The notes: generated by a model from the sequence alone, not told the origin. A stretch of DNA of 64,000 nucleotides from Squalus acanthias (GCA_030390025.1 CM059432.1:19470001-19534000); one strand, 5' to 3'. Numbered from the stretch's first letter, positions 13,144 through 63,499 are shown. A program made the numbers and translations.

Positions 13144-13539
13144 TTAAGCCCCAGATCCCCATTGCTCACCACATCCTCATGATTCCATCCCTGTCGCAGG
13201 CCATATCACAGCACAAAGCTGAAATGAGAGACACCACAAAATAATCCAAACTGAATTAATAAATTTATCAATAATCAGTGAACACATATTTACAACAACA
13301 ATATTATTTATTCATCCTTATGCAATCCCTTAGTGCCACTCGTTACTGTGCCTTTGCCTACTCTAGTGGTCCTATGAAGTGTTGGTCCAGTGGTTGCAGC
13401 ACGGCTGGTGGAAGACCGCTGAGTGTCCATGTGGGAGACTTCAGACGGCCTTGCATCTACAGCCTGGAAGACCCGACTGTAGACTGCGCCACCTCAGCAT
13501 GGGTGGCAGCAGTCTGGACTGGCTGGATGACAGGCAGCG

Positions 13540-14789
13540 TCAAGGGCAATGGCGGAGTGCCAGTGGTGGGAGCAGGAATGCTGTCATCCTGAGAGAGGCA
13601 GAGCTCTGTGCAATGTTGGAGGCGGACTCCTCCACGCTCCTTACCATTGCCGAGAGGCGCTCGGGCACCCTTGCCATTGCACCTATCATCTCCGTGTGCA
13701 TGCCCAGCACCCTTCTTCTAAATGCCTCCTCATTGAGGTCCTCATCTGAGTTGTGTGCAGCAGAACTCGTGCACAAACTCGCCCGCCGTGGAACTGGCCC
13801 CCGAGCTACCCTTTTCCCCCTGGCCTTGCTGCAGCCCGCTCGTCCCTGGTGTATCACCCTGTGCAAATCCCACTACTATACTAGCCTCTAAAGAACACAT
13901 AGTGCCAGTATCTGAGCTGGTGCCTGCGGGTGAGAGATGCAGTGACGCGGCGTCTTCTTCCTCCTCCTCTTCTCCCGCCTCGCTCTCTACGGTACCCTCA
14001 GGGATAGGCTGCTCAGGTGCTTGCTCATTATCTGAAAGCATAAAGGTACAAGATTCAGGTTAAGGTGAAGGGAGGGGGCAGGAAGGGAGAAATGCATGCA
14101 TACAGCATGATTAGCTGGAAAGTGCGAAATGCTTGTGGGGCGAGGGGAACGTGGGATGTGAGAAGAAGGAGTAGGGATGAACATATTGTTGTTATCCCCA
14201 AGGGGGTCAATGTCACTGGTGGCCATGGCGCCCAATAATATGCAGCACTTGAGTGTTTGGGTGTCAGCTTGTCCCCCGCCTGTGCGCTCCTGCTCCCTTC
14301 TGTTGTGAGCCACCTTGGCCTGCAAGAGAAAGGAAAGTGTGTGAGTGAGTGTGGAGCAATGTGTCCGGGTGATGTGCCTGCCAAAGTTGAATAGCTGTGA
14401 TTCTGTGCAAGGTGTGGGATGTGGGTGTGAGTGTTGGTAGGTTGAGATTGTTGATGGGTGAGTGCTGGCAGTCTGGTGCTTTGAGCAGTTTGTGCAGACT
14501 GTGGTTCAGATGGTGGTATGTAGCATTTGTTGAAGCATTGACTCACCCTGACCACCCGAGTGAGGTTGTTAAATTTCTTCCTGCACTGTGTGTGGGTCCT
14601 GGGGACCACAGTGCTGCCCGAGACGTGCTGGGCTACCTCCCACCACATGGCGCGGAAGACTTGCGGCGAGGGCCTCCTGCCACTTGTCGGGTAGAGCACC
14701 GCCCTCCGTCTTTCTACTGCGAACACCAACACCTCCAATGCTTGGTCACAGAATCTGCGGACTCTCTCCCTGGGGCGTGGATCTGCCAT
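13540..14789 (-). pseudogene. Harbinger Myb/SANT (trihelix) DNA-binding protein gene, 3 exons, decayed
   Basis: Exon 1 14789-14547 MADPRPRERVRRF...WWEVA...QCRKKFNNL then gtgagt donor; acceptor ttgcag then exon 2 from 14319 AKVAHNRREQERTGGG; acceptor tttcag then exon 3 from 14031 (acidic tract, coiled-coil-like C-terminus); 3' end uncertain. Confidence 0.85.
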
Positions 14790-15834
14790 AATTACGGCCG
14801 CTTGAGTCGTCCGGCTCCTTCTCCTTGACCTGCTGCTGCTGGCTGAGACGGCTGCACAGCCAGCAATAATGAGAGTGAGGTTCTGCAGCATCAATGAACC
14901 TCCCCTTTAAGAACTGGAAAGAGCCTGTGGCAATGATGACTTGTGATTAGACTGCACCTGATATTGGTCAGTGCTTTGAATTTAACGCCACTGAGCTAGG
15001 CCATTAGCGCTTGATTTAGCGCTCCAATCCTTTCTTTGTGCAATGAGACTTAATTTTGCGTGCAGTCTGAAGCATTAGCACCTGGCGCTAATTCTCAAAC
15101 TTTTCAAAAGTTACCGCCCATTCCTGGGCTATAATGAATTTCTTCCCTAGAGTTCTATGCAATATATGACAACTAGACAAAGGAGAGGCGGGAGGGGAAA
15201 CAGCAGGAGCTGAGTATTTTGCACTTGAAATGCTTTCCTGTTGACTATCATGTTATGAAGTTAAACAATCAGACTTATCTTGGTGAAACAGAATTGAATT
15301 CTGTGGAAAGAAAACCACGTTAAAAATCGCTTAGCAAGTCTGACTGGCGCAGGTGAGAAATCTTGTTTCTAACTGTAGTATCGTTTGAAGAGACAGGTGG
15401 CTGTTTTATGTTTGGCAACATGCCCATCTGTCAATAAGTAAGACAAATGAGGCTATTTCTGAAATTACAGGATAACATTGCATTTGCCAAGTAATCGTAG
15501 TTCTTCAAAGTTCACAGCAATCCAATTCTATCAACAGAGCCAGTCTGGCACCACCGTCTCTGCTTGTTGAGCCACAGCTATTTCCTGAAATGAACAAAAC
15601 AGTCAAACAGTTTCATCCCCTCTGTGCCCCAAGCAAATAAAGGATGTCAGACAGTGAGAAGACAGCTCCTTGTAATATTGAAATACTGGGAGTGAGATTC
15701 TCTCCTCTATGCTTATGGCAAGTGCTATCAATATCTAGCAGATACTTAATGCAGTGCAGTGTCTGTTTGATATTATTTTATTTTTTCCATTATTATTTTT
15801 TATTCCCCGTTTTTTCTGTGAAGCTCCGATAGTA

Positions 15835-22426: not shown

Positions 22427-23249
22427 TGAGTGTCTCCGCTTCCACCACTTCCGTCGGCAGCGAATTCTAAGTCATCACCACTCGCTGCATAAAAAAGTTT
22501 TTCCTCACATCCCCCCTGTATCTCTTGCCCAAAACCTTAAATCTGTGTCCCCTAGTCCTTGTACCATCAACTAATGGGAACAGCCTTTCCCCGTCTAGCC
22601 TATCCAAACCCATCATAATCTTGTACACCTCTATCAAATCACCCCACAACCTTCTTTGCTCTAATGAAAACAAATCCAGCTTCTCCAACCTGTCCTTGTA
22701 GCTAAGATCCCCCATCCCCGGAACCATTCTGGTAAATCTCCTCTGCACCCTCTCAAGGGCCTTCACATCTTTCCTAAAGTGTGGTGACCAGAACTGGACG
22801 CAATACTCCAGTTGTGGCCTAACCAGCGCTTTATAAAGGTTCAGCATAACTTCTCTACTTTTGTACTCAATACCTCTATTTATGAAGCCCAAGATCCCAT
22901 ATGCTTTGTTAACCACTCTCTCAATACGTCCTGCCACCTTCAGGGACCTATGCACATTAACTCCCAGGTCTCTCTGTCCCTGCACACTCTATAAAACTGT
23001 GCCATTAAGTGTATATTGTCTCTCCCTATTCCTTCTGCCAAAATGCATCACCTCACACTTCTCTGTATTAAATTCCATCTGCCACTTGTCTGCCCATTCT
23101 ATGTCCTGTTGCAGTCGATTGGTATCATCATCACTGTTTGCCACACCCCCAAGTTTGGTGTCATTGGCAAATTTAGAAATTCTACTCTGTATTCCAATAT
23201 CCAGGTCATTTACATATATATCAAGAAAAGCTTCAAAACCCATTTTTGA

Positions 23250-24723: not shown

Positions 24724-24925
24724 TTCACAGTCAATGAAGTATTTTTGAAGTATATTCACTTCATATAGTCACTATAGTAACGTAGGGAAACCCGGCATCC
24801 AGTAAGCATAATCTCAGAAACAGCAATGAGATAAATGCCAGATGATCTGTTTTTGGTGATGTTGGTTGAGGAATAAACGTTGCCCAGAACAGTGGGAGAA
24901 CTCCCTTTACTCTTCTTTGAAAGGT

Positions 24926-25273
24926 TGTCTGTCTTTCCAGTTTTAAAAAAAAACACAAAAAAAAAACCCAAAAAAGGTTAAAAGCTCAACTGCAGACAGC
25001 AGGATTTGACACGTTGGACCCCTGTGACCCATCTCATTGTCTTGGCTGTGCTCTGGTGTGTCTTTGATGTAATGCCTCCCTGAAAGAGTGTATCTCTGCA
25101 GTTTCGGTGTTTATATACTGTGTAATATTGTAGATTCCCTCATTGTACCTCTACCTGACGAAGGGGCAACAGCTCCGAAAGCTTGTAACTTTAAATAAAT
25201 CTGTTGGACTATAACCTGGTGTTGTGCGACTTCTCATTTTTGCCCACCCCAGTCCAACACCGGCATCTCCGCA
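24926..25273 (+). mobile_element. solo Penelope pLTR (family A, subtype 2)
   Basis: Ends ...ccggcatctccgca; TSD tctttgaaaggt at 24914-24925 and 25274-25285; homologous to the reverse complement of 37063-37425. Confidence 0.9.
25152..25187 (+). ncRNA. minimal hammerhead ribozyme motif with covarying stems
   Basis: tac-CTGACGA-a-ggggc aaca gctcc-GAAA-gctt-gta (stem I tac/gta versus cac/gtg in other copies). Confidence 0.78.
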
Positions 25274-27652
25274 TCTTTGAAAGGTGTCGTGGGGATCTTT
25301 TGCTTCCATTCGAGGGGGCAGAGAGGGCCTTTGTTTAACTTCTCATGCAAAACACTGACACCTCCCGCAGCACAGCACTCCCTCAGCATTACACTGACTG
25401 ATGTGTCAGCCTCGATAATGTGCTCAAGTTCTCTGGAGTGGAGCTTGAACCCACAACCTTCTGACTAACAGTCAAGTCTGAAACTGGCTCAGACAAAGTT
25501 TTACAGCCTCTTTGAAGGAAAGATAAAGGAAATATTCACGATAATACAAAGCCTGACATTTCCAATGTAAGGAGCAGAGGTCTGAAAAACTTATCTTTGT
25601 GCAATGCCGCTTAGTCTATTCAGCAAGTGAGATCAGTAGAGGGGAAGGCATACAACAGCGAGGGTCAGGTGCCCTTTTTATGCTAAATATAAGCGGCATG
25701 GAGCTAAGTCGCATGGAGCAACTTATATTTCTATCGCACACCTCGTGTCGAGAGAGATCATTGAGTGCTTTCTGTGGTGGAGGAAAGCTTTGCTCCTTAA
25801 ACATGTCTGTATCAAATTCCTTGGGCCTTGTTTTATTTTCCTTGCATGTGCCTCCCCCCGTTGTGCCACTGCTACTTTCATGGGGCTGAGCCTCAGCACC
25901 TCCCCCAGCCCCCGCCCACTGCTCTGCCTGTGAGCTGAGTGACACGAATATCTCAAAGCCTCTTTCCATAGACTCCCTCGTAGCTTTAAAGCCGAGGAGA
26001 TTCCAGCAGTCTGAGTTCCCAGCGAAGCTGTCACTAGAGGCTCCTATGCTGGAGGCCTCCTCTCTGCAGTGTTCACAGAGCTGACCGCTTTTATGTTATG
26101 AGCTATTACAACTTTGTTGGGCATTGCTTCCTTCAGTTTGGTTATCGTTTCAAACATTTGCTTGTTTTGGCATTCATTATTTTTAAAGCCCACGCATGCA
26201 GTCGTTAGCCCTGCACAAAGTTCATCTTTGAGATAATTAATTCAGCTGCCTAAGAGTCCATACACTGTGACCTTTATTGTTTCTCCGTACCTCGGATTAA
26301 ACCGGCTGGATTACAGTTACTTTCCCATTTCATTTTTCTTTAGCATTTTAGCCAGCTGGCCACTCATCGGTTAGAACAACGACCCCCTTTGCAGTGAGCC
26401 CATGCTCACTGTTCCCCACTGGCTTTAACAATGGGGTGGGAATCAGATGTATTTTATATCTCCTCTTGCATCAATGGGGTGTTTTAAATCTGCATAACTC
26501 CGAGAAAACTCAGCGATTGCAAGTTCAAATTGGCAGCTTTATAGTGCGGAATGTTCCTGTTCATATTCAGATCTTGTCTATTTCGGTCCGGTTCGGCAAT
26601 TTCATTCACTAACGACCTTCAACCTCCAACTTAATCTCCAATTAAGATGACAGGCATTTGTGTGATTCCATTTTTGTTCTGCTTTGTAGTGTGTTAGTTT
26701 ATTTTTCTTTACTTTTTTTAAACAAGGGTTTTACAACACAGACCTGTTGTACCTTATCCTGTGTCCATGTTGCGATTTTGTTAGCGGATTTTTTGACAGT
26801 TTGGGTCAAGTGTGGGCACACACGCTGGCATAGCCATTAAATGAAATAAATCGCAAATTGAGTTGTGCAGCATACCCAGGGCTTAGTCCCTGAAAGTGAA
26901 CAGCAAGCTGATAGAGCAAGCTACACGGGCTATTTGTAGCCGATTAAATGGTGTCACCCGGATTAAACAGATGATGTGTGTCAAATAAATGAAAGGTGCT
27001 GGCTGCATAATTTATGCCGCAAGGTGACTGAGCCCTCCCTCAGCATCTGCAAAGCAAACACATTGCAGGAGAATGAATTCTCAGCTAAAAGTAATCCCTG
27101 GTATCATTTGTTGAAGTATGTGCTTAATCTCGGTGAGACAGAAGGAAAACCAACCACCTCTTGACATGAGTAATACAGGGAGATCTTATTTATTTAATTG
27201 TCTGTGCACAACAATCACAAGATCATTTGCAACTATGCAAGGACAGTATTTTTTTTTTTACATACCAGGACGCAACGCATAGATTCAGTTAGTGGCTGGA
27301 CAACACTTGTACGAGCAGGTGGGCAGAGGACACAGTTGTGTAGGTTTTTTGCCGAGAGCATTTTGATGAATTGGAAGTGCCGAGCTGCACGTCAATGCAG
27401 AAAATTGTCTCTGGATATCAACAACTTTAGCCACCTGGTGTGACTTTATTGGGCACAGACGAGGACCACTATTATTTTACAGAAAGACTCAAAAGGTCAG
27501 ACTTCAACATTTGGCAGCCAAAATGCATTGGCTCTGTCGATGTCACATCTGGTGAGAACATTGCTAATTATGCCACCCGAGTTAAAGAAGTCCTGCTTTG
27601 TGCCTCAATTTTCTCCCTCGTCTCCTGAAGCTTTTGTTGCTGGCTATACACA

Positions 27653-36285: not shown

Positions 36286-37152
36286 AATAAGTTTGTTAAA
36301 CCCAATTTCAATATGTTAATTAGATGGATCTCAAAGAGTTTCCTTAATAACTCACATTACTGTTAGCAAAGAATCAAGGCATTCTTGTATTCTTCCTCTG
36401 ATCTACGCAGCACCAGCTCTGACACAGAGAATTAAAAGATTCTGCACTACAATGCATCTATTGGAAAAGTTCCAATGCAATGATCTTTAAGCAGCCTAAG
36501 CTCTTCTTTGTCCCCAGTACTAACCCAACAAAACATTACACCTGCGAAAAGAAGGTTTCAGATAAGGGTATCGCAGAAACATGCAATGGCAATAGAAATA
36601 AATTCAGGTGATCACTTTGTAGAAGAACCCTATCTAATCTTGCCACCTTGTGTCCTTTAATCAAAAGTATCCATTCATAAACCATGGGACTTTGAGGCTT
36701 TGCCGCTTTTGTGTGATGACAGCACAAAAAGAATACAACAAACCATAATCCATATTTGGAGATATGCAATGACCTTATTTCAGAGAGTTGCTTTACTTCC
36801 AGCAGTGCTTCAACTTTTTCTTACTTGATCCCTGTCTGTGAAGACTGTTAGAAAACAAGCAAGGAAAACGCCTAACTGAAGTGAATGACATGAATGTAAG
36901 TGACGATCGAAAAATATCTCGCTCTTAGAATGAGAGAGAAAAAGAGACGGTGCTTAACAAGATAATATCAAGACTTGCAGCAGGTGTGTTTATAATGCCT
37001 TTTGTGATTCTGAATCAAAGTACTGCATCATGACAAACCCTCTAACTAAATCAATGATGGTCATGATGCGGAGATGCCGGCGTTGGACTGGGGTGGACAA
37101 AAATGAGAAGTCGCACAACACCAGGTTATAGTCCAACAGATTTATTTAAAAT

Positions 37153-37188
37153 TACAAGCTTTTGGAGCTGTCGCCCCTTCCTCAGGTA
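37153..37188 (-). ncRNA. hammerhead motif, core mutated (GAAA>AAAA)
   Basis: Reverse complement: tac-CTGAGGA-a-ggggcgacagctcc-aAAA-gctt-gta. Confidence 0.6.
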
Positions 37189-37434
37189 AAGTTACAATGA
37201 GTGAATCTACAATATTTCACAGTATATAAACACAGAAACTGCAGAGATACAATCTTTCAGGGAAGGTGTCCTTACATCAAAGACACACCAAGAGCACAGC
37301 CAAGACAATGAGATGTGTCACAGGGGGTCCAACGTGTCAAATCCTGCTGTCTGCAGTGTTTTTTGGGGGGGTTTTTGTGTTTGTTTTTTTGTGTTTTTTT
37401 TTTAAAAACTGGAAAGACAGACAACGATGTCGAG

Positions 37435-38380
37435 TCACGTTCTGTAGCGTGACATGAACCCGATATCCCTATTGAGGCCGTCCTCATGGGTGCGGAACTT
37501 GGCTGTCAGTTTCTGCTCAATGATTTTGCGTTGTCGTGTGTCTCGAAGGCCGCCTTGGAGAACGCTAACCCGCAGATCCGAGGCTGAATGTCCTTGACTG
37601 CTGAAGTGATCCCCGACTGGGAGGTAACAATCCTGCCTGGCGATTGTTGCGCGGTGTCCGTTCATATGTTGTCTCAGTGTCTGCATGGTCTCACCGATGT
37701 ACCATGCTCTGGGGCATCCTTTCCTGCAACGTATCAGGTAGACAACATTGGCCGAGTCATATGAGTATGTACCATGTACCTGGTGGGTAGTGTCCTCACG
37801 TGTGATGACGGTATCTGTGTTCATGATCTGGCATGTCTTGCAGAGGTTGCCGTGGCAGGGTTGTGTGGTGTCGTGGTCGCTGTTCTCCTGACAGCTGAGT
37901 AATTTGCTGCGAACGATGGTACTTTTGAGGTTAGGCAGCTGCTTGAAGGCGAGTAGTGGAGGCGTGGGGATGGCCTTAGCAAGGTGTTCGTCGTCATCGA
38001 TGACATGTTGAAGGCTGCGAAGAGCATGGCGTAGTTTCTCTGCTCTGGGGAAGTACTGGACGACGTAGGGTACTCTGTTGGTTGTGTCCCGTGTTCGCCT
38101 TCTGAGGAGGTTTATGCGGTTTTTCGCTGTGGCCCGTCGGAACTGTCGATCGATGAGTCGAGCGTCATATCCCGTTCTTACGAGGGCGTCTTTCAGTGTC
38201 CGTAGGTGTCCACCGCGTTCCTCCTCGTCTGAGCAGATCCTGTGTATTCGCAGGGCTTGTCCACAGGGGATGGCTTCTTTAACGTGGTTAGGGTGGAAGC
38301 TGGAGAAGTGGAGCATCGTGAGGTTGTCCGTGAGCTTGCGGTAGAGTGAAGTGCTGAGGCGTCCGTCTTTGATGAGGCGT
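37435..38380 (-). pseudogene. 5'-truncated Penelope ORF (RT thumb, Cys linker, GIY-YIG)
   Basis: IKDGRLSTSLYRK...PCHGNLCKTC...NVVYLIRC..WYIGET...GLNRD; closely similar to the intact ORF. Confidence 0.9.
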
Positions 38381-38926
38381 CCAAATTCGCACCCCAATAC
38401 GCCAACATCTTCATGCACAAGTTCGAGCAAGACTTCTTCGCTGCACAGGACCTCCAACCAACGTTGTACACCAGATACATCGACGACATCTTCTTCCTTT
38501 GGACCCACGGCAAAGGATCACTTTTTTTGCTGGAAATCACCGCATCTGTGTAGAGAGAACAAGCCAACGACGACTCGAGTCTCGCTACATGTAACCCCAC
38601 CTGATGTAGAGTCATCCAGACTCGAGTCGTCGTTGGCTTGTTCTCTCTACACAGATGCAGCCGGACCTGCTGTGATTTCCAGCAAAATAAGTTTTTTGTT
38701 TTCCATACAGACCCCAGCATCTGCCACATTTGACCCCTTGTGACCCCACCTCATTGTCTTTGATGTAATGTTTTCCTGACTGACCTGTTTGGACACCATC
38801 CACACCTTTGATTGCCGTGATTATCTCTCTGCCGAGGTGTGATAAAGGGCAGTTAGAAAGATTAACTGTAATCATCTGGCAGTGTTCTCTGTCTATATAT
38901 GCTGTGCCTATATGCATCTCTTCACT

Positions 38927-38963
38927 TCACCTGACAAAGGAGCAGCGCTCCGAAAGCTTGTGA
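38927..38963 (+). ncRNA. hammerhead motif, core mutated (CTGACGA>CTGACAA)
   Basis: tcac-CTGACaA-a-ggagcagcgctcc-GAAA-gctt-gtga. Confidence 0.6.
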
Positions 38964-39144
38964 TTTCAAATAAAGCTGTTGGACTATAACCTGGTGTTGT
39001 GCGACTTCTCACATTTGTCAACTGGTAGGGATTAGGACAAATCGAAAGGCTAACTCTCAGATAAAAGTATAGGGAGTAAACAAGGAATTTTAAGAAATTA
39101 ATCAATATTCATGGTTTTCCATGAGTCGCGAGGTCAAAATGCTG

Positions 39145-44973: not shown

Positions 44974-45572
44974 AATATTAGCAAACAACAATGTAGAACA
45001 GCAATGGGAAACATTTAAAACAGTGTTCAACAGAGTGAAGGAACAATATTTTCCACTAAAAGGAAAGAACAAACGAAACACTAATGAGACTCCATGGATG
45101 AATAAAGCCATAAGGGAACAATTGAGGGTAAGGAAAGAGGCATACATTAAGTACATGGAAAGCATGATAAGGGAGAATATGAAGAGATTAGGAGAGAAGT
45201 CAAAAAAACAATTCGGAAGGCAAAGAGGAACTATGAAATTCAATTATCAGGGAACATAAAACAAAATAACAACACAACAACAGCAACTTGTATTTATATA
45301 GCACCTTTAATGTAGTAAAACGTCCAAAGGCGCTGCACAGGAGTATTTTAAGACAAAAATTTGTCACCGAGCCACATAAGGATAAATTAGCGCAGGTGAC
45401 CAAAAGCTTGGTCAAAGAGCTAGGTTTTAAGGAGCGTCTTAAAGGAGGAAAGAGAGGTAGGTAGCGAGGAGGAGAGGTTTAGGCAGGGAATTCCAGAGCT
45501 TAGGCCATCAAAGGTTGACAAATGTGAGAAGTCGCACAACACCAGGTTATAGTCCAACAGCTTTATTTGAAA

Positions 45573-45609
45573 TCACAAGCTTTCGGAGCGCTGCTCCTTC
45601 GTCAGGTGA
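45573..45609 (-). ncRNA. minimal hammerhead ribozyme motif, intact
   Basis: Reverse complement: tcac-CTGACGA-a-ggagcagcgctcc-GAAA-gctt-gtga. Confidence 0.8.
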
Positions 45610-45611
45610 AG

Positions 45612-45648
45612 TCACCTGACAAAGGAGCAGCGCTCCGAAAGCTTCTGA
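45612..45648 (+). ncRNA. hammerhead motif with two mutations
   Basis: tcac-CTGACaA-a-ggagcagcgctcc-GAAA-gctt-ctga. Confidence 0.6.
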
Positions 45649-48600
45649 TTTCAAATAAAGCTGTTGGACTATAACCTGGTGTTGTGCGACTTCTCACATT
45701 TGTCCACCCCAGTCCAACACCGGCATCTCCACATCACATCAAAGGTTGAGCGATTATAATCAGGGATGCTCAAGAGGGCAGAATTAGAGGAGCGCAGATA
45801 TCTCGGGTGGTGGGGGGGTGTTGTGGGGCTGAAGGAGATTACAGAGATAGGAAGGGGCGAGGTCATGGAGGGACTTGAAAACAAGGATGAGAATTTTGAA
45901 ATTGAGGCGCTGCTTAACTGGGAGCCAATGTAGGTTAGCGAGCACAGGGGAGATGGGCGAACGGGACTTGGTGCGAGTTAGGACGTGGGCAGCCGACTTT
46001 TGGATGACCTCAAGTTTACGTAGGGTAGAATGTGGGAGTCCAGCCAGGAGTGCATTGGAATAGTCAAGTCTAGAGGTAACAAAGGCATGGATGAGGATTT
46101 CAAAAGCGGATGAGCTGAGGCAAAGGCGGAGACGGGCGATGTTACGGAGGTGGAAGAAGGCGGTCTTTGTTATGCTGCGGATATGTGGTCGGAAGCTCAT
46201 TTCAGGGTCAAATATGACACCAAGGTTGCGAACAGTGTGGTTCAGCCTCAGACAGATGTTAGGGAGAGGGATGGAGTTAGTGGCTAGGGAACGGAGTTTG
46301 TGGCGGGGACTGAAAACAATGGCTTTGGTCTTCCCAATATTTAATTGGAGAAAATTTTTGCTCACCCAGAACTATATGTCGGACAAGCAGTCTGACAACT
46401 TAGACACCGTGGAGGGGTCGAGAGAAGAGATAGTGAGGTAGTGCTGGGTGCTGTCAGCGTACATGTGAAAACCGATGCTGTGTTTTCGGATGATGTTGCC
46501 AAGGGGCAACATGTAGATGAGAAATAGGAGGGTGCCAAGGATAGATCCTTGGGGGACACCAGAGGTAACGATGCGGGAGCGGGAAGAGAAGCCGTTGCAG
46601 GTGATTCTCTGGTTATGATTAGATAGATAAGAAATAGTAAAATATTTTACAGGCACATCAATAAAAAAAGGAAGGGTGGGATGGGAATAGGGCCATTAAG
46701 GGATAGACAGAATAATACCACAGGTAATAATAGAGAGATGGCAGAAATATTAAATAATTATTTTGCTTCAGTATTTACCAGGGAGATAGAACAGGTGGAC
46801 ATGACATTGGATGATGAGATTAGTAATGAGATAAGTATAATTAAAATAAAAAGAGGGGATATATTAAATAAACTAATCAAACTCAAAGAGGAGAAAACCC
46901 CTGGTCTGGATGGATTGCATCCATACATTTAAAAAGAATCTAGGGAAGAGATAGCAGAGGCATTACTACATATATTTAATAATTCGTTAGAAAAAGGTGT
47001 AGTGCCAGAGGACTGGTGGATAGCTAATTTAATACCTATATTCAAGAAAGGGGATAAAACATGTCCAGGGAATTATAGACCAGTCAGCTTAACATCGGTG
47101 GTAGGAAAAATAATGGAATCCCTACTAAAGGAGAAAATAGAAGAACATCTAGAAAATAAAAATATAATAAGGAATAGTCAGCATGGAGTTCAAAAGGGAA
47201 AGTCTTGCTTGACCAACCTCATTGAATTTTTTGAAGAGGTAACAGAGAGAGTAGACAATGGTAATGCAGTCGATGTAATTTATCTAGATTTTCAAAAGGC
47301 CTTCGATAAGGTACCACATAAAAGACTGATGAACAAGGTCAGAGAATGCGGAGTCAGGGGACAAGTAGCAGAATGGATAGCTAGCTGGCTTCAAGACAGA
47401 AAGCAGAGAGTAGGGGTAAAAGATAACCATTCACAGTGGCAGAAGGTGGGTAGTGGTGTTCCACAAGGATCAGTGCTGGGATCACTGTTGTTCACAATTT
47501 ACATTAACGATTTAGACTTTGGAATCAAAAACACAATTTCTAAATTTGCAGATGACACCAAATTGGGGGGATAGTCAATACTGAGGAGGACTGCAACAAA
47601 TTGCAGGAGGACATTAATAACTTGCAGAATGGGCATATAATTGGCAAATGAAATTCAACACAGATAAGTGTGAGGTATTACATTTTGATAGGAAGAATAG
47701 GGAGGTCACTTATTACTTGGAGGGTGCGAGTCTAGGTGGGGTAAAGGAACAGAGAGATCTCAGAGTACAAGTACACAAATCACTTAAAGTTGCGACACAG
47801 GTTAGCAAGGCCATTAAAAAAAGCAAACCAAGCACTAGGGTTTATTTCTAGAGGGATAGAATTGAAAAGTAGGGAAGTTATGCTAAACTTGTATCGAACC
47901 TTGGTTCGACCACACTTAGAGTACTGTGTACAGTTCTGGTTGCCATATTATAAAAAGGATATAAAGGCACTGGAGAGGGTGCAGAGAAGATTTACAAGGA
48001 TCATACCAGAAATGTGAGGGTATACGTATCAGAAAAGGATGATGAACAGGCGAGGTCTCTTTTCTCTTGAAAAAAGAAGGCTGAGGGGTGACTTAATAGA
48101 TGTCTTTAAAATTATGAAAGGTTTTGATAGAGTGGATACAGAGAGAATGTTTCCACTTGTGAGGAAGAGCATAACTAAAGGCCATCAATATAAGATAGTC
48201 ACCAAGAAATCCAATAGGGAATTCAGAAGAAACTTCTTTACCCAGAGAGTGGTGAGAATGTGGAACTCGCTACTACAGGGAGTCGTTGAAGTGAATAGTA
48301 TAGATGCATTTAAGGGGAGGCTAGACAAGCATATGAGGGAGAAGGGAATAGAGGATTATGCTGTTAGAGTTAGATGAGGAAAGACGGGAGCAGGCTCGTG
48401 TGGAGCATAAACGCTGGCATGGACTGGTTGGGCCGATGGCCTGTTTCTGTGCCGTATATCCTATGTAATCCTATGTAATATCTCTACAAGATCACCTCTC
48501 AGATGCCTCCTTGCCAGGCTAAAAAGCCCAAGTTTCTCCATAACTTATACCCTTGGGATCATCTTTGTGGCTTTTCTCTACACTCTCTTTTGCACTTGAA

Positions 48601-52995: not shown

Positions 52996-53773
52996 CTTTA
53001 CAACTTGCCTGCTGTTAGATTTCAAAGTTCCTTTCCCTGGCTAGAAAGTAAGAGATAGCAAAGGACAGTGATGGAGGAAAGAAGGGATATATTTGTAACA
53101 GAGAACCTTCAGTAGAATCATAAAATCATAGATTAGTACAGCACAGAAGAGGCCATTTGGCCCATTGAGTCTGTGCCGGCTCTTTCGAAGAGCAATCCAG
53201 TTAGTCGCACTCCCCCGCTCTTTTTTCTCCTTCAAGTATTTATCCAATTCGCTTTTGAAGGCTACTATTGAATCTGTATCCACTACCCGATCAGGCAGTG
53301 CACTCCAAACCCTAACCACTCGTTGCATTAAAAAGTTTTTCCTCATGTCACCTCAGGTTCTTTGCCAATCACCTTAAATCTGTGCTCTCTGGTTATCAAC
53401 TCTTCAGCCATTGGAAACAGTTTATCTTTATATACTCTATCTAAACCCTTCATGATTTTAAACACCTCTATCATACCTCCACTCAGCCTTCTCTGTTCTA
53501 AGGAGAACAACCCTAGCTTCTCCAGTCTATCCACGTAACTGTATTCCCTCATCCCTAGAACCGTTCTAGTAAATCTCTTCTGTACCCTCTCCAAAGCCTT
53601 CACGTCCTTCCTAAAGTGTGTTGCACAGAATGAGACACAATACACCAGCTGGGACTGAACTAGTGTTTTCTATAGGTTCAGCATAACTGCCTGGCTCTTT
53701 TTTACTCTGCCTCTTTTTATAAAATTGAGAGGTCGCACAACACCAGGTTATAGTCCAACAGTTTTATTTGAAA

Positions 53774-53811
53774 TCACAAGCTTTCGGAGCTATCGCTCCT
53801 TCCTCAGGTGA
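53774..53811 (-). ncRNA. minimal type-I hammerhead ribozyme motif (inverted arm)
   Basis: Reverse complement: tcac-CTGAGGA-a-ggagc gata gctcc-GAAA-gctt-gtga. Confidence 0.8.
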
Positions 53812-54149
53812 AGTAAATTGGATACAGAATCGTCAGAGCATATATAGATGGAAAAAAAAGCATGTGTACTTTACAATTGCAGACCAATAAATTAAATCAT
53901 CCTGACTATCTGCCGAGGTGTGATAAAGTTAATTAAGTCAGCCAGGAAGGTACCACATCAAAAGACATAGCAAGATACAACTGAGACAATGAGGTGAAGT
54001 CGCAGGGGTTCTAACGTGTCAAAAGCTGCCGTCTGTATGTAAAACGAAAAGCTTAAAAAAAAAAAAAATTTACTTTTTTACTGGGAAAATTTTTACTTTT
54101 TTACTGGGAATCACATCTGTGAACAAGCTAACGACGACTCGAGTCCGGA

Positions 54150-55745
54150 TCACGTCATGTATCGTGACATAAACCCAAGATCCCGATTGAGACCGTCTTC
54201 ATGAGTGCAGAACTTGGCTATCAGTTTCTGCTCGATGATTTTGCGTTGTCGTGTGTTTCTAAGGTTGCCTTGGAGAACGCTTACCCGCAGATCCGAGGCT
54301 GAATGTCCTTGACTGCTGAAGTGTTCCCCGACTGGGAGGTAACAATCCTGCCTGGCGATTGTTGCGCGGTGCTCGTTCATACGTTGTCTCAGTGTCTGCA
54401 TGGTCTCGCCGATGTACCATGCCGCGGTGCATTCTTTCCTGCAACGTATGAGGTAGACAACGTTGGCCGAGTCACATGAGTATGTACCATGTACCTGGTG
54501 GGTAGTGTCCTCACGTGTGATGGTGGTATCTGTGTTGATGATCTGGCATGTCTTGCAGAGTTTGCCATGGCAGGGTTGTGTGGTGTCGTGGTCGCTGTTA
54601 TCCTGAAAGCTGGGTAATTTGCTGCGAACGATGGTACTTCTGAGGTTAGGCGGCTGTTTGAAGGCAAGTAGTGGAGGCGTGGGGATGGCCTTAGCGAGGT
54701 GTTTGTCGTCATCGATGACATGTTGAAGGCTGCGAAGAACATGTCGTAGTTTCTCCGCTCCGGGGAAGTACTGGACGACGTAGGGTACCCTGTTGGTTGT
54801 GTCCCGTGTTTGCCTTCTGAGGAGGTCTATGCGATTTTTCGCTGTGGCCCGTCGGAACTGTCGATCGATGAGTCGAGCGTCATATCCCGTTCTTACGAGG
54901 GCGTTTTTCAGCGTCCGTAGGTGTCCATCGCGTTCCTCCTCGTCTGAGCAGATCCTGTGTATTCGCAGGGCTTGTCCATAGGGGATGGCTTCTTTAACAT
55001 GGTTAGGGTGGAAGCTGGAGAAGTGGAGCATCGTGAGGTTGTCCGTGGGCTTGCGGTAGAGTGAAGTGCTGAGGTGTCCGTCTTTGATGGAGATTCGTGT
55101 GTCCAGGAATGAGACCGATTCTGAGGAGTAGTCCATGGTGAGTTTGATGGTGGGATGGAACTTGTTTATGTTATCGTGTAGTCTTTTCAGTGATCCTTCG
55201 CCATGGGTCCAAAGGAAGAAAATGTCGTCGATGTATCTGGTGTACAGCGTTGGCTGGAGGTCCTGTGCAGCGAAGAAGTCTTGCTCGAACTTGTGCATGA
55301 AGATGTTGGCGTATTGGGGTGCGAATTTGGTCCCCATGGCTGTTCCGTGTGTTTGGGTAAAAAAATGGTTGTCGAAGGCGAAGACATTGTGGTCAAGGAT
55401 GAAGCGGATGAGTTGTAGGATGGCGTCTGGAGATTGGCTGTTGTTGATGTTGAGTACTGAGGCTGTTGCAGCGATGCCGTCATCGTGGGGGATACTGGTG
55501 TAGAGTGCCGATACGTCCATCGTGGCAAGGAGTGTTCCTGGTTCAACTGGTCCGTGGGTGCTGAGTTTCTGTAAGAAGTCTGTAGTGTCGCGACAGAAGC
55601 TGGGGGTTCCCTGTACGATGGGTTTCAGAATGCCCTCGACGTATCCAGAGAGGTTCTCACACAGGGTTCCATTGCCTGATACGATAGGACGTCCGGGTGT
55701 GTTGGCTTTGTGTATCTTTGGGAGGCAGTAGAAGTCTCCCACGCG
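54150..55745 (-). pseudogene. 5'-truncated inverted copy of the Penelope ORF (RT core to GIY-YIG), frame open
   Basis: 530 aa identical to the C-terminus of the intact ORF except T>A in HNVF(T/A)FD; no native start codon. Confidence 0.9.
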
Positions 55746-56160
55746 TAAAAAAGTAAAAATTTTCCCAGTAAAAAAGTAAATTTTTTTTTTTTTAAGCTTT
55801 TCGTTTTACATACAGACGGCAGCTTTTGACACGTTAGAACCCCTGCGACTTCACCTCATTGTCTCAGTTGTATCTTGCTATGTCTTTTGATGTGGTACCT
55901 TCCTGGCTGACTTAATTAACTTTATCACACCTCGGCAGATAGTCAGGATGATTTAATTTATTGGTCTGCAATTGTAAAGTACACATGCTTTTTTTTCCAT
56001 CTATATATGCTCTGACGATTCTGTATCCAATTTACTTCACCTGAGGAAGGAGCGATAGTTCCGAAAGCTTGTGATTTCAAATAAAACTGTTGGACTATAA
56101 CCTGGTGTTGTGCGACCTCTCAATTTTGTCCACCCCAGTCCAACACCGGCATCTCCGCAT
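55745..56160 (+). repeat. 5' pseudo-LTR of Penelope
   Basis: Direct repeat of 58886-59300; contains the hammerhead and AATAAA (~56080); ends at the ATG. Confidence 0.93.
56037..56074 (+). ncRNA. minimal type-I hammerhead ribozyme motif (5' pLTR)
   Basis: tcac-CTGAGGA-a-ggagc gata gttcc-GAAA-gctt-gtga; predicted cut after 56070. Confidence 0.8.
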
Positions 56161-56161
56161 C

Positions 56162-58840
56162 ATGACCACTATCGACACCACAAACTGCCGGCTCAAAGTG
56201 GAGAGAATCGCCAAGAAGATCGCGCATATCGACACCGACATCAAGTATCTACAGAGATGCAAGAAAGCAGACAAGATCCCGAAAGGACTACAGATCACGA
56301 ACCCACTCAAGTCGACATACAACACAGACTACGCTGAGAGACTCTGCCGTCGTACCTCTCGCACACTCCTCAACCATCTCGTACACCAGCTCTACAGCAA
56401 ACGCCACAACCTCGAAACCAAGATAGAGTCCATGCTCTCAGCCTGTGCTCAGGACACAGCAGACCAGTTACGAGACACCACCAAACAGACGAGGCAACGG
56501 AACTACGCTGCCTACATGCGCATCAAGAACAGGAAGCTTGAGAAACTCGGCATCACCACCAGCAGCAACCAAGCCTCCCCCGGTACCACGGCTGCAACCA
56601 CAGGGAAGTCCATCGTCAACTTGTCCGACCATACCCTTCAACCAGACGAAATCGAAGTTCTCGCCCTAGGGCTCAAGTTCTGCCCAACCACCAAAATGGA
56701 CCCCATCGGTCTCGCGGCAGACACGGAGGAATTCATCAGGAGAATGAGGCTCCGGGAATACTTCCACAAATCCCAAGATGTCAGCAACAAACCCAATGAG
56801 ACAATCAATGATCCAGAACAGCAGACAGAGGGACTCGCAGTGCAGCAACCGAAGAAAAAAGAGTCAAACTGGACCCCTCCGGAGGGTCGCTGCCCCAAGC
56901 TTGACATGTATGCTCAAGCTGTCAGGAAATGCATCAACGCCAGATTCATCAGCCGCACTCACAAGACAGTCCAGAATGTCACCCGAGCACAACGCAACGC
57001 CATCCACGCTCTCAAGACCAACCGCAACATTGTCATCAAACCAGCGGACAAAGGAGGAGCCATCGTCATACAGAACAGAACGGACTATTGTAAAGAAGCA
57101 TACCGACAACTGGACAACCAGGAACACTACAGACAGCTACCCGCAGATCCGACCAAAGAACACACCCGCCAACTCAATAGACTGATCAAGACCTTCGATC
57201 CAGACCTTCAAAACATCCTACGCGCTCTCATCCCACGTACTCCCCGCGTGGGAGACTTCTACTGCCTCCCAAAGATACACAAAGCCAACACACCCGGACG
57301 TCCTATCGTATCAGGCAATGGAACCCTGTGTGAGAACCTCTCTGGATACGTCGAGGGCATTCTGAAACCCATCGTACAGGGAACCCCCAGCTTCTGTCGC
57401 GACACTACAGACTTCTTACAGAAACTCAGCACCCACGGACCAGTTGAACCAGGAACACTCCTTGCCACGATGGACGTATCGGCACTCTACACCAGTATCC
57501 CCCACGATGACGGCATCGCTGCAACAGCCTCAGTACTCAACATCAACAACAGCCAATCTCCAGACGCCATCCTACAACTCATCCGCTTCATCCTTGACCA
57601 CAATGTCTTCACCTTCGACAACCATTTTTTTACCCAAACACACGGAACAGCCATGGGGACCAAATTCGCACCCCAATACGCCAACATCTTCATGCACAAG
57701 TTCGAGCAAGACTTCTTCGCTGCACAGGACCTCCAGCCAACGCTGTACACCAGATACATCGACGACATTTTCTTCCTTTGGACCCATGGCGAAGGATCAC
57801 TGAAAAGACTACACGATAACATAAACAAGTTCCATCCCACCATCAAACTCACCATGGACTACTCCTCAGAATCGGTCTCATTCCTGGACACACGAATCTC
57901 CATCAAAGACGGACACCTCAGCACTTCACTCTACCGCAAGCCCACGGACAACCTCACGATGCTCCACTTCTCCAGCTTCCACCCTAACCATGTTAAAGAA
58001 GCCATCCCCTATGGACAAGCCCTGCGAATACACAGGATCTGCTCAGACGAGGAGGAACGCGATGGACACCTACGGACGCTGAAAAACGCCCTCGTAAGAA
58101 CGGGATATGACGCTCGACTCATCGATCGACAGTTCCGACGGGCCACAGCGAAAAATCGCATAGACCTCCTCAGAAGGCAAACACGGGACACAACCAACAG
58201 GGTACCCTACGTCGTCCAGTACTTCCCCGGAGCGGAGAAACTACGACATGTTCTTCGCAGCCTTCAACATGTCATCGATGACGACAAACACCTCGCTAAG
58301 GCCATCCCCACGCCTCCACTACTTGCCTTCAAACAGCCGCCTAACCTCAGAAGTACCATCGTTCGCAGCAAATTACCCAGCTTTCAGGATAACAGCGACC
58401 ACGACACCACACAACCCTGCCATGGCAAACTCTGCAAGACATGCCAGATCATCAACACAGATACCACCATCACACGTGAGGACACTACCCACCAGGTACA
58501 TGGTACATACTCATGTGACTCGGCCAACGTTGTCTACCTCATACGTTGCAGGAAAGAATGCACCGCGGCATGGTACATCGGCGAGACCATGCAGACACTG
58601 AGACAACGTATGAACGAGCACCGCGCAACAATCGCCAGGCAGGATTGTTACCTCCCAGTCGGGGAACACTTCAGCAGTCAAGGACATTCAGCCTCGGATC
58701 TGCGGGTAAGCGTTCTCCAAGGCAACCTTAGAAACACACGACAACGCAAAATCATCGAGCAGAAACTGATAGCCAAGTTCTGCACTCATGAAGACGGTCT
58801 CAATCGGGATCTTGGGTTTATGTCACGATACATGACGTGA
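56162..58840 (+). CDS. Penelope-like (Neptune clade) polyprotein: reverse transcriptase + Cys-rich linker + GIY-YIG endonuclease, 892 aa
   Basis: First ATG at 56162; IKPADKGGAIV, LPKIHK..PGRPIVS, TMDVSALYTSIP, GTAMGTKFAP, RYIDD, FLD; PCHGKLCKTC linker; VVYLIRC..WYIGET..R..EH..HF..E..GLN; no stops. Confidence 0.96.
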   Translation: MTTIDTTNCRLKVERIAKKIAHIDTDIKYLQRCKKADKIPKGLQITNPLKSTYNTDYAERLCRRTSRTLLNHLVHQLYSKRHNLETKIESMLSACAQDTADQLRDTTKQTRQRNYAAYMRIKNRKLEKLGITTSSNQASPGTTAATTGKSIVNLSDHTLQPDEIEVLALGLKFCPTTKMDPIGLAADTEEFIRRMRLREYFHKSQDVSNKPNETINDPEQQTEGLAVQQPKKKESNWTPPEGRCPKLDMYAQAVRKCINARFISRTHKTVQNVTRAQRNAIHALKTNRNIVIKPADKGGAIVIQNRTDYCKEAYRQLDNQEHYRQLPADPTKEHTRQLNRLIKTFDPDLQNILRALIPRTPRVGDFYCLPKIHKANTPGRPIVSGNGTLCENLSGYVEGILKPIVQGTPSFCRDTTDFLQKLSTHGPVEPGTLLATMDVSALYTSIPHDDGIAATASVLNINNSQSPDAILQLIRFILDHNVFTFDNHFFTQTHGTAMGTKFAPQYANIFMHKFEQDFFAAQDLQPTLYTRYIDDIFFLWTHGEGSLKRLHDNINKFHPTIKLTMDYSSESVSFLDTRISIKDGHLSTSLYRKPTDNLTMLHFSSFHPNHVKEAIPYGQALRIHRICSDEEERDGHLRTLKNALVRTGYDARLIDRQFRRATAKNRIDLLRRQTRDTTNRVPYVVQYFPGAEKLRHVLRSLQHVIDDDKHLAKAIPTPPLLAFKQPPNLRSTIVRSKLPSFQDNSDHDTTQPCHGKLCKTCQIINTDTTITREDTTHQVHGTYSCDSANVVYLIRCRKECTAAWYIGETMQTLRQRMNEHRATIARQDCYLPVGEHFSSQGHSASDLRVSVLQGNLRNTRQRKIIEQKLIAKFCTHEDGLNRDLGFMSRYMT

Positions 58841-58885
58841 TCCGGACTCGAGTCGTCGTTAGCTTGTTCACAGATGTGATTCCCA

Positions 58886-59300
58886 GTAAAAAAGTAAAAA
58901 TTTTCCCAGTAAAAAAGTAAATTTTTTTTTTTTTAAGCTTTTCGTTTTACATACAGACGGCAGCTTTTGACACGTTAGAACCCCTGCGACTTCACCTCAT
59001 TGTCTCAGTTGTATCTTGCTATGTCTTTTGATGTGGTACCTTCCTGGCTGACTTAATTAACTTTATCACACCTCGGCAGATAGTCAGGATGATTTAATTT
59101 ATTGGTCTGCAATTGTAAAGTACACATGCTTTTTTTTCCATCTATATATGCTCTGACGATTCTGTATCCAATTTACTTCACCTGAGGAAGGAGCGATAGT
59201 TCCGAAAGCTTGTGATTTCAAATAAAACTGTTGGACTATAACCTGGTGTTGTGCGACCTCTCAATTTTGTCCACCCCAGTCCAACACCGGCATCTCCGCA
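58886..59300 (+). repeat. 3' pseudo-LTR of Penelope
   Basis: No difference seen from 55745-56160. Confidence 0.93.
59178..59215 (+). ncRNA. minimal type-I hammerhead ribozyme motif (3' pLTR)
   Basis: Identical to 56037-56074; predicted cut after 59211. Confidence 0.8.
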
Positions 59301-60268
59301 TCTTTTTATAAAGCCCAGGATCCCATATGCTTTATTAACTGCTTTGTTAACCTGTCCTGCCACCTTCAAAGATTTATGCACAATCACCCCCAAGTCTTTC
59401 TGTTCTTGCACACCCTTTAATATTGCACCATTTAGCACGCATTGTCTCTCCTCATTCTTCCTACCAAAACATATCACCTCACACTTTTCTGCGCTGAATT
59501 TCATCTGCCATATGTCCAACCATTCCACCAGCCTGTCTATGTCCTTTTGAAGTCTATTACTATCTTTCTCACTGTTTACTACACTTCCAAGTTTCGTGTC
59601 ATCCGCAAATTTAAAATTTGTGCCCTGTACCAAGTCCAAGTCATTAATATATATCAAAAACAGCAGTGGTCCTAGTAGTGAACCCTGCAGAACACCATTG
59701 TATACCTCCCTCCAGTCCAAAAAACAGCCATTCAGCACAAATCTGTTTTCTATCCTTTAGCCAATTTTGTATCCATGCTGCTACTGCCCCTGTTATCCTA
59801 CAGGCTCAATTTTACTAACAAGTCTAATATGTGGTACTTTATCAAATACCTTTTGAAAGTCCATATACACAATATCAACTGCACTGCCCTCATCCACCCT
59901 TTCTATTACCTCATCAAAAAACTTAATCAAGTTAGTCAAACACGATTTGCCCTTAACAAATCCATTCTACCACTATGAATGTTGGGATAGCTCATTTATA
60001 TAAGGCTCAATTGATTTTGCCAATTTGTTTCATATTCTCAAACTTCATTAGATCACCTTAAAGTCTCCTGTTTGAAAGAAAAAACAAACAAACCCAATGT
60101 CCTTAACTTGAGAGATCTAGCAGGTTTTATGACTCACTGAATCTGTTCAATCATGGAGGAGCAGCAATCAACAATGCAAATAAATACTGAACTATATAGG
60201 CAAAAAGAAAAAGTCCAAATCAAGGGAAGTCATGCTCAAAATATAGATCTCTCGTCAGCGTACACCTT

Positions 60269-60452
60269 GGATGTAATTTTGACTTGGGCGATAGTGTAAA
60301 ACAGGCGATAGCAAATTGTGCTAGCAAATTACTCTCCTGATTTTCATTTCCACTAAAGTCAATTCAAAATGAAAAGCAGGAGAGCAGTAAAATGGATTGC
60401 CGATTCCCTATTTCCCCTTTTACACTATCGCCCAAAGTCAAAATTACCCCCC
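60269..60452. mobile_element. palindromic MITE (Harbinger-like ends) inserted in an old CR1 (~60190-60920, +)
   Basis: gtaattttgact-tgggcgatagtgtaaaa / ttttacactatcgcccaaagtcaaaattac; flanking ctt duplication. Confidence 0.8.
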
Positions 60453-61139
60453 CTTGAGTTCTGTCTCCATTTTTGGTCACTGAGACATAATGTGCATTCA
60501 AGTAGAACTGGAGGCAGTCAAGAGAAGATCCATAAGGCTGATCAATGGCATTAGAGGACTGAGTTGTGAAGAAAGACTGAAGAAACTGCAGCCTTCCAAG
60601 GAGGTGCCTCAGAGGTAACCTTATAGAGATACACTAAAGAGAGTAAATTGTATAAACTACTTCAAACTAAACCTGGTCATTGCGACTAGGGGACACGGGC
60701 TCAAACTAATAAAAGGCAAATTAAGGACCGATGTCAGAAAGCTCTTCACACAAACTGTGATCAGCATATGGTATCGACTTCTGGATAGGATGGTGGAGGC
60801 AAAAACCTTAAAATTATTGAAGAAACAGTGGGATGTTGTGATAGGTGATCGTAGGGTCTTTCTGGATTCAGGAGCTAAGATTGGTCCAATGGTCTTCCTT
60901 ATCTATTATCCATCTTACAAATTTGGAATTAATTGCTAATGTGGAGTTCCAGTTCCCAAAAGTTATTTTCCTGTTGGTGGTGCGCCATCTTTAAAAAGTA
61001 CAGATTCTTGGTACAAGGAAATAGAATTTAAGATGTCATGTTTTTAGGTCATGCACAACTTCATGCAGGTTAATTAGCAGCTTTCCTTTGACTGATTTAA
61101 GGGTGGAGCCAAACAATTTACATCGAGATCCTTGTTTTA

Positions 61140-61546
61140 CATCCTTGTTTTCAAATCCCTCCATGGCCTCGCCCCTTCCTATCTCTGTAATCTCCTTCAG
61201 CCCCACAACGCCCCCCCCCCTCCCCCGAGATAACTGCATTCCTCTAATTCTGCCCTCTTGAGCATCCCTGATTATAATCGCTCCACCATTGGTGACCGTG
61301 CCTTCTGTTGCCTAGGCCCTAAGCTCTGGAATTCCCTGCGTAAATCTCTCCGCCTCGCTACCTCTCTTTGCTCCTTTAAGACGCTCCTTAAAACCTACCT
61401 CTTTGACCAAGCTTTTGGTCACCTGCCCTAATTTATCCTTATGTGGCTCGGTGTCAAATCTTTTGTCTTACAATACTCCTGTGCAGCGCCTTGGGACGTT
61501 TTACTACATTAAAGGTGCTATATAAATACAAGTTGTTGTTGTTGTT
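61140..61546 (+). mobile_element. L2 LINE 3' end, followed by a CR1 3'UTR (61548-61645)
   Basis: Reverse complement of 45280-45890 without the Penelope insert; (gtt)n tail. Confidence 0.9.
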
Positions 61547-62149: not shown

Positions 62150-63499
62150 GGCTCGATTTTAAACTCGGGTTCAAATTGGGCGGACGGGCAGGATGGAGTG
62201 GAAGTCCCCATGATGTTGTCATTGTGAGTTTCACTCCCAGGCCTTATTACCATTTCAATGCTGGCCTGTCCTCCCGATCACGTAGAGAATCGTGGCAGCC
62301 CGCCCACCTGCCGCGCACAACTTTCGCTGCGACTCCCGAGGCCTATTTAAAGCGAGGGTGCACCTCTTGAGGCGTGGTTGCATTCCCTATGTTGATTTTT
62401 GCTGGAAGAGCACTGGAAAAGATTGCGAGACCTTGCTGCATGAAAATTGGCTGCTACGTTTCCAAGTTATAACAGTGACTGCACTTCAAAAAGTACCTAA
62501 TTGGATGTAAAGTGCTTTGGGAAGTCCTGAGGTTGTGAAAGGTGCTATATAAATACAAGTTCCTTCGTCTAACCTAAGCAGAGTAAGACGCCCTGGTGAT
62601 CAGTGACCCAAGCAGAGCCATCAGCATCAGGGAAGATAAGGCTTACCAGAGCAGGGTGTGTGCATATTACTTGTAATCCTTCATTCATCTCAGAAAATGA
62701 AGTTCAAGTTGTATTCTCAAGACAATCACCTGCAAACATCCAGTTTCCAGCTGCTATCCTAACTCTTGTCCCTTTTCTCTTTCAAGAAGAACTTCGGTGG
62801 TGGGCAATCCTCCTGCGGATACACTGTCACGTGCTGCATTCCTCCCAGACACCAGATCAGATACTGACACTCCGCGCTGGTTAGATAGTGAGCCAGAGGA
62901 GCCTGCATGTATTGAAACACCCAGCACCATTGAGCAGCTGCAGGTACTGGTGGCGGAGATACCACAGGAGACGGCTTGCTGGAGGGTAAGGTCCTCTTCC
63001 AGCACTGCTAAGGCAGACAGAGATGAGGGCTTCAGGGACACAGCCATGAAAAGCAAACTTCTGGCATCACACAAGGAGCTTCATGAGGCAGTGGAAGGTC
63101 TGCCAAGGAGTTTCACCACTATGGCTGAAAGTGTGGAGGAGTCCGATTCCAGCTCGAGTGGTGTCATCTTGCATGGCATTAGCACTCTGCAGTTTACTTT
63201 GGAGAGTGTGGTCACCTCAAGGGATGCTGCGGCTGGGCCCTCACAACAGGAGTCCATGTTCATACGCTTGGCAGCTTTGGTGGAAGCTCTAACAGCTGCC
63301 ATGCAAATTCTGGCCTCCACACTTCAGGGACATCGGAGCATGACTTTTACATTTCAATGGGGCCCTTGCCTGCCTGTGGTGGCCACCTCTCCCATGACCA
63401 AAGACAGCACAGGTGGGAACGTGCAGGAAGCGTAGCAGGAAGTGCCGGACCGCCATTTTAACCTACCTCATTCCCGCCGGGCAAGGTTAAAATCAGCCC
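62150..63499 (+). mobile_element. Harbinger deletion derivative retaining a Myb-partner last-exon remnant (62797-63435) and a SINE tail (62440-62560)
   Basis: Ends ggctcgattttaa / ttaaaatcagccc; DEGFRDTAMKSKLLASHKEL..LPRSFTTMAESVEESDS aligns with DEDLNEEAFRRRVLGMHTEM..VPERLSAMVRSVEESAS. Confidence 0.65.

Follow-up and report, generated by a model that had tools for sequence, protein, structure and literature searches.

The stretch of Squalus acanthias DNA considered here (GCA_030390025.1 CM059432.1:19470001-19534000; 64,000 nucleotides (nt), hereafter the window) carries at 53712-59312 one intact, canonical, endonuclease-positive (EN+) Penelope-like element (PLE) with the layout typical for PLEs. 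With good confidence the locus can be put down to one insertion event, in a shark-like genome, of a Neptune-type PLE whose high-copy family includes the small and recent sub-lineage to which this copy belongs.

Anatomy of the element and its insertion site

The single open reading frame (ORF), on the plus strand at 56162-58840, runs from ATG to TGA through 892 amino acids (aa) with zero internal stops, as an earlier reading of the same sequence (the first-pass annotation) had it in describing an uninterrupted frame for reverse transcriptase (RT), linker and GIY-YIG nuclease. Around it lie two direct pseudo-long terminal repeats (pLTRs), 55745-56161 and 58886-59302, in which that annotation saw no differences and which are indeed identical over 417/417 nt. 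To their left, an inverted arm at 53721-55745 (2,025 bp) repeats 57245-59268 in reverse complement and takes in 60% of the ORF. Two substitutions in 2024 aligned columns (55379 vs 57611; 53789 vs 59200) and a 1-nt indel in a homopolymer run of T at 54068 are the three differences already counted between the arms, which are 99.85% identical. With its upstream pLTR and whole ORF the copy is, judged from its sequence, structurally competent, and it bears no mark of being the source for other copies. The features are as follows.

53150..53711, minus strand: host CR1-type long interspersed nuclear element (LINE), 3′ part, 75% to the copy at 6055-6612
53712..53723, plus strand: left target-site duplication, TCTTTTTATAAA; its last 3 nt also match the element's tail-less end
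53721..55745, minus strand: inverted 5′-truncated copy, with ORF residues ~362-892, 3′ untranslated region (UTR) and a tail-less pLTR
53774..53811, minus strand: hammerhead motif within the inverted arm, with C at 53789 making a G-C pair in stem II
55737..55745, plus strand: head-to-head junction, with a 1-nt overlap, or a 5+1-nt microhomology with a 3-nt bulge; the joining mechanism is conjectural
55745..56161, plus strand: pLTR1, the upstream partial-tandem copy, with a TATA-like box at 56002 (putative promoter)
56037..56074, plus strand: hammerhead motif of pLTR1; T at 56059
56162..58840, plus strand: single ORF, 892 aa, with RT, Cys linker and GIY-YIG motifs
58841..58885, plus strand: part of the 3′ UTR without a duplicate in pLTR1
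58886..59302, plus strand: pLTR2, identical to pLTR1
59178..59215, plus strand: hammerhead motif of pLTR2; T at 59200, predicted cut after 59211
59269..59302, plus strand: 34-nt tail, in both direct pLTRs, missing from the inverted arm; in pLTR1 it ends at the base before the ATG
59301..59312, plus strand: right target-site duplication; its first 2 nt are also element-coded
59313..59900, minus strand: continuation of the host CR1-type LINE, RT fragment, 79% to 6601-7198, contiguous with the left flank

The whole unit is flanked by the 12-nt direct repeat at 53712-53723 and 59301-59312, which at a fixed pair of positions has a chance probability of about 7e-8. Five of the 12 letters (2 right, 3 left) are also coded by the element, giving a true stagger of 7-12 nt and, for the 7 free letters, a chance of about 6e-5; with that qualification the perfect 12-bp duplication inside an older CR1, as first annotated, stands. 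In two other CR1-type copies of the window (6055-7198 and 22456-23231) the sequences that flank the element run on without a break, and the element therefore interrupts an older LINE. On the minus strand of the right flank there is an RT fragment (PF00078, E 2.5e-9), and the 3′ end pattern is that of what we take to be a CR1; the target itself is an AT-rich site within it.

The encoded protein and its placement among Penelope-like elements

In a local Pfam scan of the ORF only RVT_1 was matched (E 1.4e-8); the GIY-YIG domain was not called by that scan, though its motifs are present and some homologues carry PF01541. The RT motifs are GxKF (170), DKG (296) and the aspartates D438 and D534-D535; the linker cysteines are C753-x4-C758-x2-C761; and the endonuclease has GIY-YIG in the form VVY 790 and YIG 805, CCHH as C796, C800, H820 and H836, and R816, E866 and N881. 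When the query is aligned with 100 of the 120 listed homologues, 101 sequences in all, each of these motifs and residues reaches 90% conservation or more. The query has the consensus residue at 160 of the 171 columns conserved at 80% or more among the 100 homologues, and all 11 departures, Q686 included, are common to the three closest named shark proteins. A predicted model (predicted local distance difference test score, pLDDT, 92.3; predicted template modelling score, pTM, 0.78) has TERT structures at all of Foldseek ranks 1-10 (best E 3e-9), which supports a telomerase-like RT and, together with the RVT_1 match and the VVY..YIG motifs, agrees with the annotated pairing of a telomerase-related RT with a GIY-YIG nuclease. 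PLE structures were not among the listed Foldseek matches, nor did a PDB sequence search bring one up, its single match being at E 0.89. The insertion in the fingers domain (IFD) is absent, D438 to G495 being 57 aa as compared to about 60 in DreriNep1 (by-eye count in Fig. S1 of PMC8557442).

The element works like, and very probably is, a Neptune-type PLE, an assignment made by linker and spacer. The first-pass annotation took the Cys linker as the mark of Neptune. A linker of the form CX2-5CxxC is indeed present, but it is common to Neptune and Nematis (PMC8557442), and Neptune is itself paraphyletic in the same paper; it is the spacer from linker to next cysteine (C785), 23 aa long, that favours Neptune. 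Its length is 23-26 aa in 87 of the 88 pattern-matched sequences among the 101 aligned, and, by-eye counts in Fig. S2 of PMC8557442, 25-27 aa in four Neptune rows as against 7 aa in three Nematis rows. This spacer speaks against Nematis, whose own linker is reduced to about 7 aa, and the linker's presence against the Penelope/Poseidon clade, which has no Cys linker; the C-terminal EN speaks against the Naiad/Chlamys clade (N-terminal EN, CxC, IFD), and DKG and CCHH against the Hydra clade (DKT, no CCHH).

Neptune-clade EN+ PLEs (Neptune-1_Ac, DrerioNep1, Penelope1_XT and Neptune1_Nv in PMC8557442 Fig. S2) share with the present element the single ORF with RT followed by C-terminal GIY-YIG, the CX2-5CxxC linker with long spacer, CCHH, DKG, GxKF, lack of an IFD, pLTRs and tail. 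What differs is the new host family and the target, an AT-rich CR1 site in place of a (TA)n microsatellite. Among vertebrates Neptune elements have a wide distribution (bioRxiv 10.64898/2026.07.22.740005), and killifish are reported to have active ones (PMC12602865). Target-primed reverse transcription in vitro with a full-length PLE has already been published for an Anolis Poseidon element (PMC11167929); no in vitro assay of a Neptune enzyme was met with in a literature search that had most subscription journals and Repbase outside its scope. The element supplies a whole, motif-complete Neptune-type ORF, with which the role of the Cys linker in target choice becomes testable.

Tail, hammerhead motifs and the origin of the inverted arm

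Two features overlooked in the first-pass annotation, the absence of the 34-nt tail from the inverted arm and the hammerhead motifs, bear on how the arms came about. A one-sided tail of 30-40 nt has been described for PLEs (PMC8557442). The family has two 3′-end classes 34 nt apart: of seven older pLTR ends in the window four lie at the tail end (0-7 nt beyond) and three at the tail-less position, and in public sequencing runs (4 of 21 listed runs, aligned to 56162-61400) loose ends and joints occur at 59302 and at 59263-59273, with varied flanks after both (10 contigs after 59302, agreement 0.51). In the same runs other family copies attach their 3′ ends to the same CR1 site (joints 59263-59355) and to the start of a repeat at 61140 (joints 61140-61148), which hints that AT-rich sites within common repeats are preferred as targets.

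A minimal hammerhead motif is present in all three pLTRs of the element. In a comparison of 10 pLTR copies from the window, bases pair in 97.8% of 90 cells, with one compensatory pair, a level reached by 17 of 500 shuffles and with a covariation signal that the relatedness of the copies inflates. In common with the minimal PLE hammerheads of PMC4209133 it has the CUGANGA core, an extra base before stem II, the G10.1-C11.1 pair, palindromic positions 15.2-16.2 and a short stem I; a self-cleaving role is putative.

In the insertion scheme proposed, the GIY-YIG domain would cut both strands of the AT-rich CR1 site, 7-12 nt apart. From one nick, reverse transcription would be primed at the tail end (59302), cross the ORF and continue across a second pLTR, which could be read from multimeric RNA, from circular RNA or by a template jump. 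The other nick would prime at an internal site 34 nt upstream (59268), with 2 kb being copied before synthesis stops in a small hairpin, and the two complementary DNAs (cDNAs) would then join head to head at 55745 by microhomology. The point where the inverted arm stops is the loop of a small hairpin in the sense RNA (57232-57253; z -2.4, 4 of 200 shuffles being equally good), and target duplications of 12 and 13 nt at two older inverted insertions speak for the scheme. With the Anolis Poseidon enzyme in vitro, both strands of AT-rich targets are cleaved and extended from two RT start sites bracketing the tail, and a dimer is predicted (PMC11167929). That element, PAc, also has in common with the present one two 3′-end classes bracketing the tail and a hammerhead motif in the pLTR; it differs in belonging to a clade without the Cys linker and in its RT starts, 111-118 nt inside the ORF, where the ends here are 1 and 35 nt upstream of the ATG.

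The finer issue is whether one RNA or two were copied. At one stem II site of the hammerhead motif the seven older pLTRs (7/7) and the inverted arm (53789) have C, and both direct pLTRs (56059, 59200) have T, from which C appears ancestral and T derived. The inverted arm otherwise has this sub-lineage's loop and core letters, and therefore was not patched from an older copy. The second of the two substitutions, 55379, occurs in the inverted arm only; shark homologues and one further public run (X15, see below) side with the direct copy. The T/T/C pattern favours two RNA templates primed from both nicks over the folding back of a single template, and it is an evenly balanced proposition that the inverted and direct halves were copied from two RNA molecules, with an enzyme dimer priming both nicks at two tail-bracketing starts. 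Should T have arisen in a single RNA, then one molecule, circular or used more than once, served as template for both direct pLTRs.

Somewhat less probable is that self-priming or folding back on a single template, either antisense RNA or the first cDNA, produced the inverted arm, its tail-less end coming from endonuclease resolution. Such an origin has been put forward for PLE inverted junctions (PMC3846280) and, as regards the tail, in PMC8557442, and it accords with the 99.85% identity of the arms and with a short palindrome and hairpin at the head-to-head junction. However, a single template predicts all T or all C in the three pLTRs, not the T, T and ancestral C found, and chance reversion at the lineage-derived site has a probability of at most 0.03-0.04; conversion between the two direct pLTRs after a later mutation could rescue it.

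Several points weigh against the overall account of one Neptune-type insertion, and against its two-template version in particular. The priming steps are transferred by analogy from Poseidon, whose start sites lie inside the ORF and not at the ATG, and among the joints listed for the public runs, within 56162-61400 only, no reads were seen over the locus's left junction or its inversion junction. The two-template case turns on one nucleotide, noticed post hoc, and the T/T/C pattern would also be the outcome of a polishing error, or of a later mutation followed by conversion from one direct pLTR to the other. The Neptune placement comes from linker and spacer. An Rfam search gave no hammerhead, its one match being a chance-level snoRNA, and the single-strand fold of the motif is weak (z -1.0 and -2.0). 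Finally, at the variant sites by which the sub-lineage is placed below (the best-supported 40 of 53 rows), the other letter is not always the majority one.

The element is ordinary: each of its structural features counts as typical of PLEs in the literature. The usual insertion unit, exemplified by Pen2a_Av (Adineta vaga; PMC3846280) and by Fig. 2 of PMC8557442, shares with it two direct pLTRs, an adjacent inverted 5′-truncated copy, a one-sided 30-40-nt tail and a short target duplication. The present element departs from the typical unit in the 2-kb extent of an inverted arm with 60% of the ORF, in a tail that ends exactly before the ATG, and in arms that differ at a polarisable site. L1 twin priming likewise has cDNA synthesis started from each of the two target nicks, with joining of the products by microhomology. 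There, though, the segments come from one RNA and do not overlap, whereas the 2-kb overlap here needs two template units. The literature search, in the scope already given, met with no allele-based test of PLE arm origin; the allele pattern across the three pLTRs points to an inexpensive way of testing, genome-wide, how inverted repeats of PLEs come about, a question that the papers cited here leave open, and high-copy shark families with several co-active sub-lineages could separate two-template priming from self-priming.

Family, age and activity

The family is high-copy. In run X1 summed contig depth over the ORF is 68,593 to 1,220,413, as against 14-18 in four unique-flank bins; summed depth is not copy number, and we read it only as hundreds to thousands of family copies. 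Of the 40 variant rows, 35 lie within the ORF, 20 of them synonymous and 15 non-synonymous, with a ratio of non-synonymous to synonymous change (pN/pS) of 0.22 (p 0.003 vs random transitions). The inverted arm has this copy's letter at 26/26 variant sites in its range and an older copy of the window has the bulk letter at 13/13, and the changes therefore arose in source elements before insertion, under selection. The variants show descent through purifying selection, and by them this copy falls into a recent sub-lineage that differs from the family bulk by about 1%; of the 15 amino-acid changes, none is in a column conserved at 80% or more.

In run X15, which has a different organism code (C), the ORF is found at about 99.2%. 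The figure counts 18 differences in 2399 nt and draws on 7 of 8 listed contigs, an overlapping variant contig being set aside; depth in this run is low and the unique flank is hardly covered. Over 56168-58785 that run has some derived letters as in this copy which are missing from the bulk of runs X1 and X5; its sequence may be host DNA in a mixed sample. Runs with organism codes B, D and E (word share 0.39-0.48) do not enter the analysis. Protein relatives, as partial gene models, are found in Heptranchias perlo (92% identity), Scyliorhinus torazame (86%) and Mustelus asterias (82%). The cluster of shark relatives has 54 members, of which 40 were examined, all named, and 15 listed, all H. perlo. 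The public shark relatives differ from the present element in being partial models, mostly named uncharacterized. The exact 892-aa protein is absent from the protein collection searched, and no description of this Neptune-type family turned up among the papers listed by a shark-focused literature search. In two shark gene models, P0015 (an epn2 isoform) and P0128 (a divergent protein kinase domain 2Ab isoform), pieces of the family ORF are fused to host genes, probably through annotation read-through.

The element is young relative to its neighbours, and so far the annotation's 'very young' is supported; an absolute age is not, the shark rate leaving room for up to about 2 million generations. 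With the 7e-10 per bp per generation measured in another shark (PMC10587355), two substitutions correspond to about 6e5 generations (95% range 8e4 to 2.3e6). A single post-insertion substitution would give 3e5, and zero would still allow up to 1.2e6; the lower bound is itself zero if both differences stem from templates or RT error.

That this copy is a currently active source (master) element, for which the first-pass annotation proposed it as a candidate, is unlikely. It does have a whole ORF, all catalytic motifs and an upstream pLTR with a TATA-like box; partial tandems can be active (PMC3846280), and family sequence across the ORF is present in an RNA-like run. In that run (X8, RNA by guess), however, two long 5′ ORF contigs, each accounting for all local depth, differ from this copy at 5/804 nt, though since such contigs drop rare variants the figure does not equate to absence of this copy's transcripts: the dominant form there is a sister lineage, and this copy may still be transcribed. 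The identity of the arms is, as just seen, compatible with an age that leaves the candidacy unsupported. The ratio of observed to expected CpG (o/e), 0.88 as against 0.25-0.42 in the host CR1, would fit a recent source, but an older, broken copy is equal in this (0.91, vs 0.97 for the same part of the element), by which CpG content is ruled out as a sign of youth. Nor does the open frame help, as an ORF of this size would stay free of nonsense for about 1e7 generations at the shark rate (assuming that 4% of substitutions are nonsense), and intactness therefore says little. Slow mutation in shark genomes makes both near-identity and an open frame poor indicators that a copy is active now.

Least probable by far is that the structure, or the few arm differences, are an assembly or polishing artefact of near-identical repeats. 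Such structures do trouble assemblies (PMC8557442), one difference is a homopolymer length and no contig among those aligned from the public runs spans the locus. Against an artefact, the target duplication is present on either side and the host element continues across the insertion, the ends are at the family's two standard 3′ positions, the arms are not identical, and the window is without any N.

Four further insertions of the family are present in the window (9451-10361, 24918-25278, 37058-39022 and 45513-45736). Those extending over 9443-10372 and 45506-45749 are palindromic pLTR-only insertions, in each of which one end has the tail and the other lacks it, and both arms have a hammerhead motif; theirs are the 12- and 13-nt target duplications mentioned above. 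That at 24918-25288 is a solo pLTR in direct form, which has the tail and is flanked by a target duplication of 10-11 nt, and its compensatory stem I change is common to the 37-kb copy. The latter, 37058-39022, is an older composite with tail and tail-less arms of two pLTR types (78% to one another, 95% each to separate copies) and an internal inversion (the equivalent of 57660-57801 in sense, from 57901 onward antisense); a target duplication was sought for it and no clear one found. Its arms of two types would fit the two-template reading, but in view of the target duplication not found the composite is only a hint and may be two events.

Elsewhere in the window, an ORF at 62701-63435 that resembles one at 12150-14906 has no Pfam match. 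At 12150-14906 itself a DDE_Tnp_4 fragment on the plus strand converges with a Myb/SANT-like fragment on the minus strand, the two together having the look of what is presumably a decayed Harbinger-type DNA transposon.

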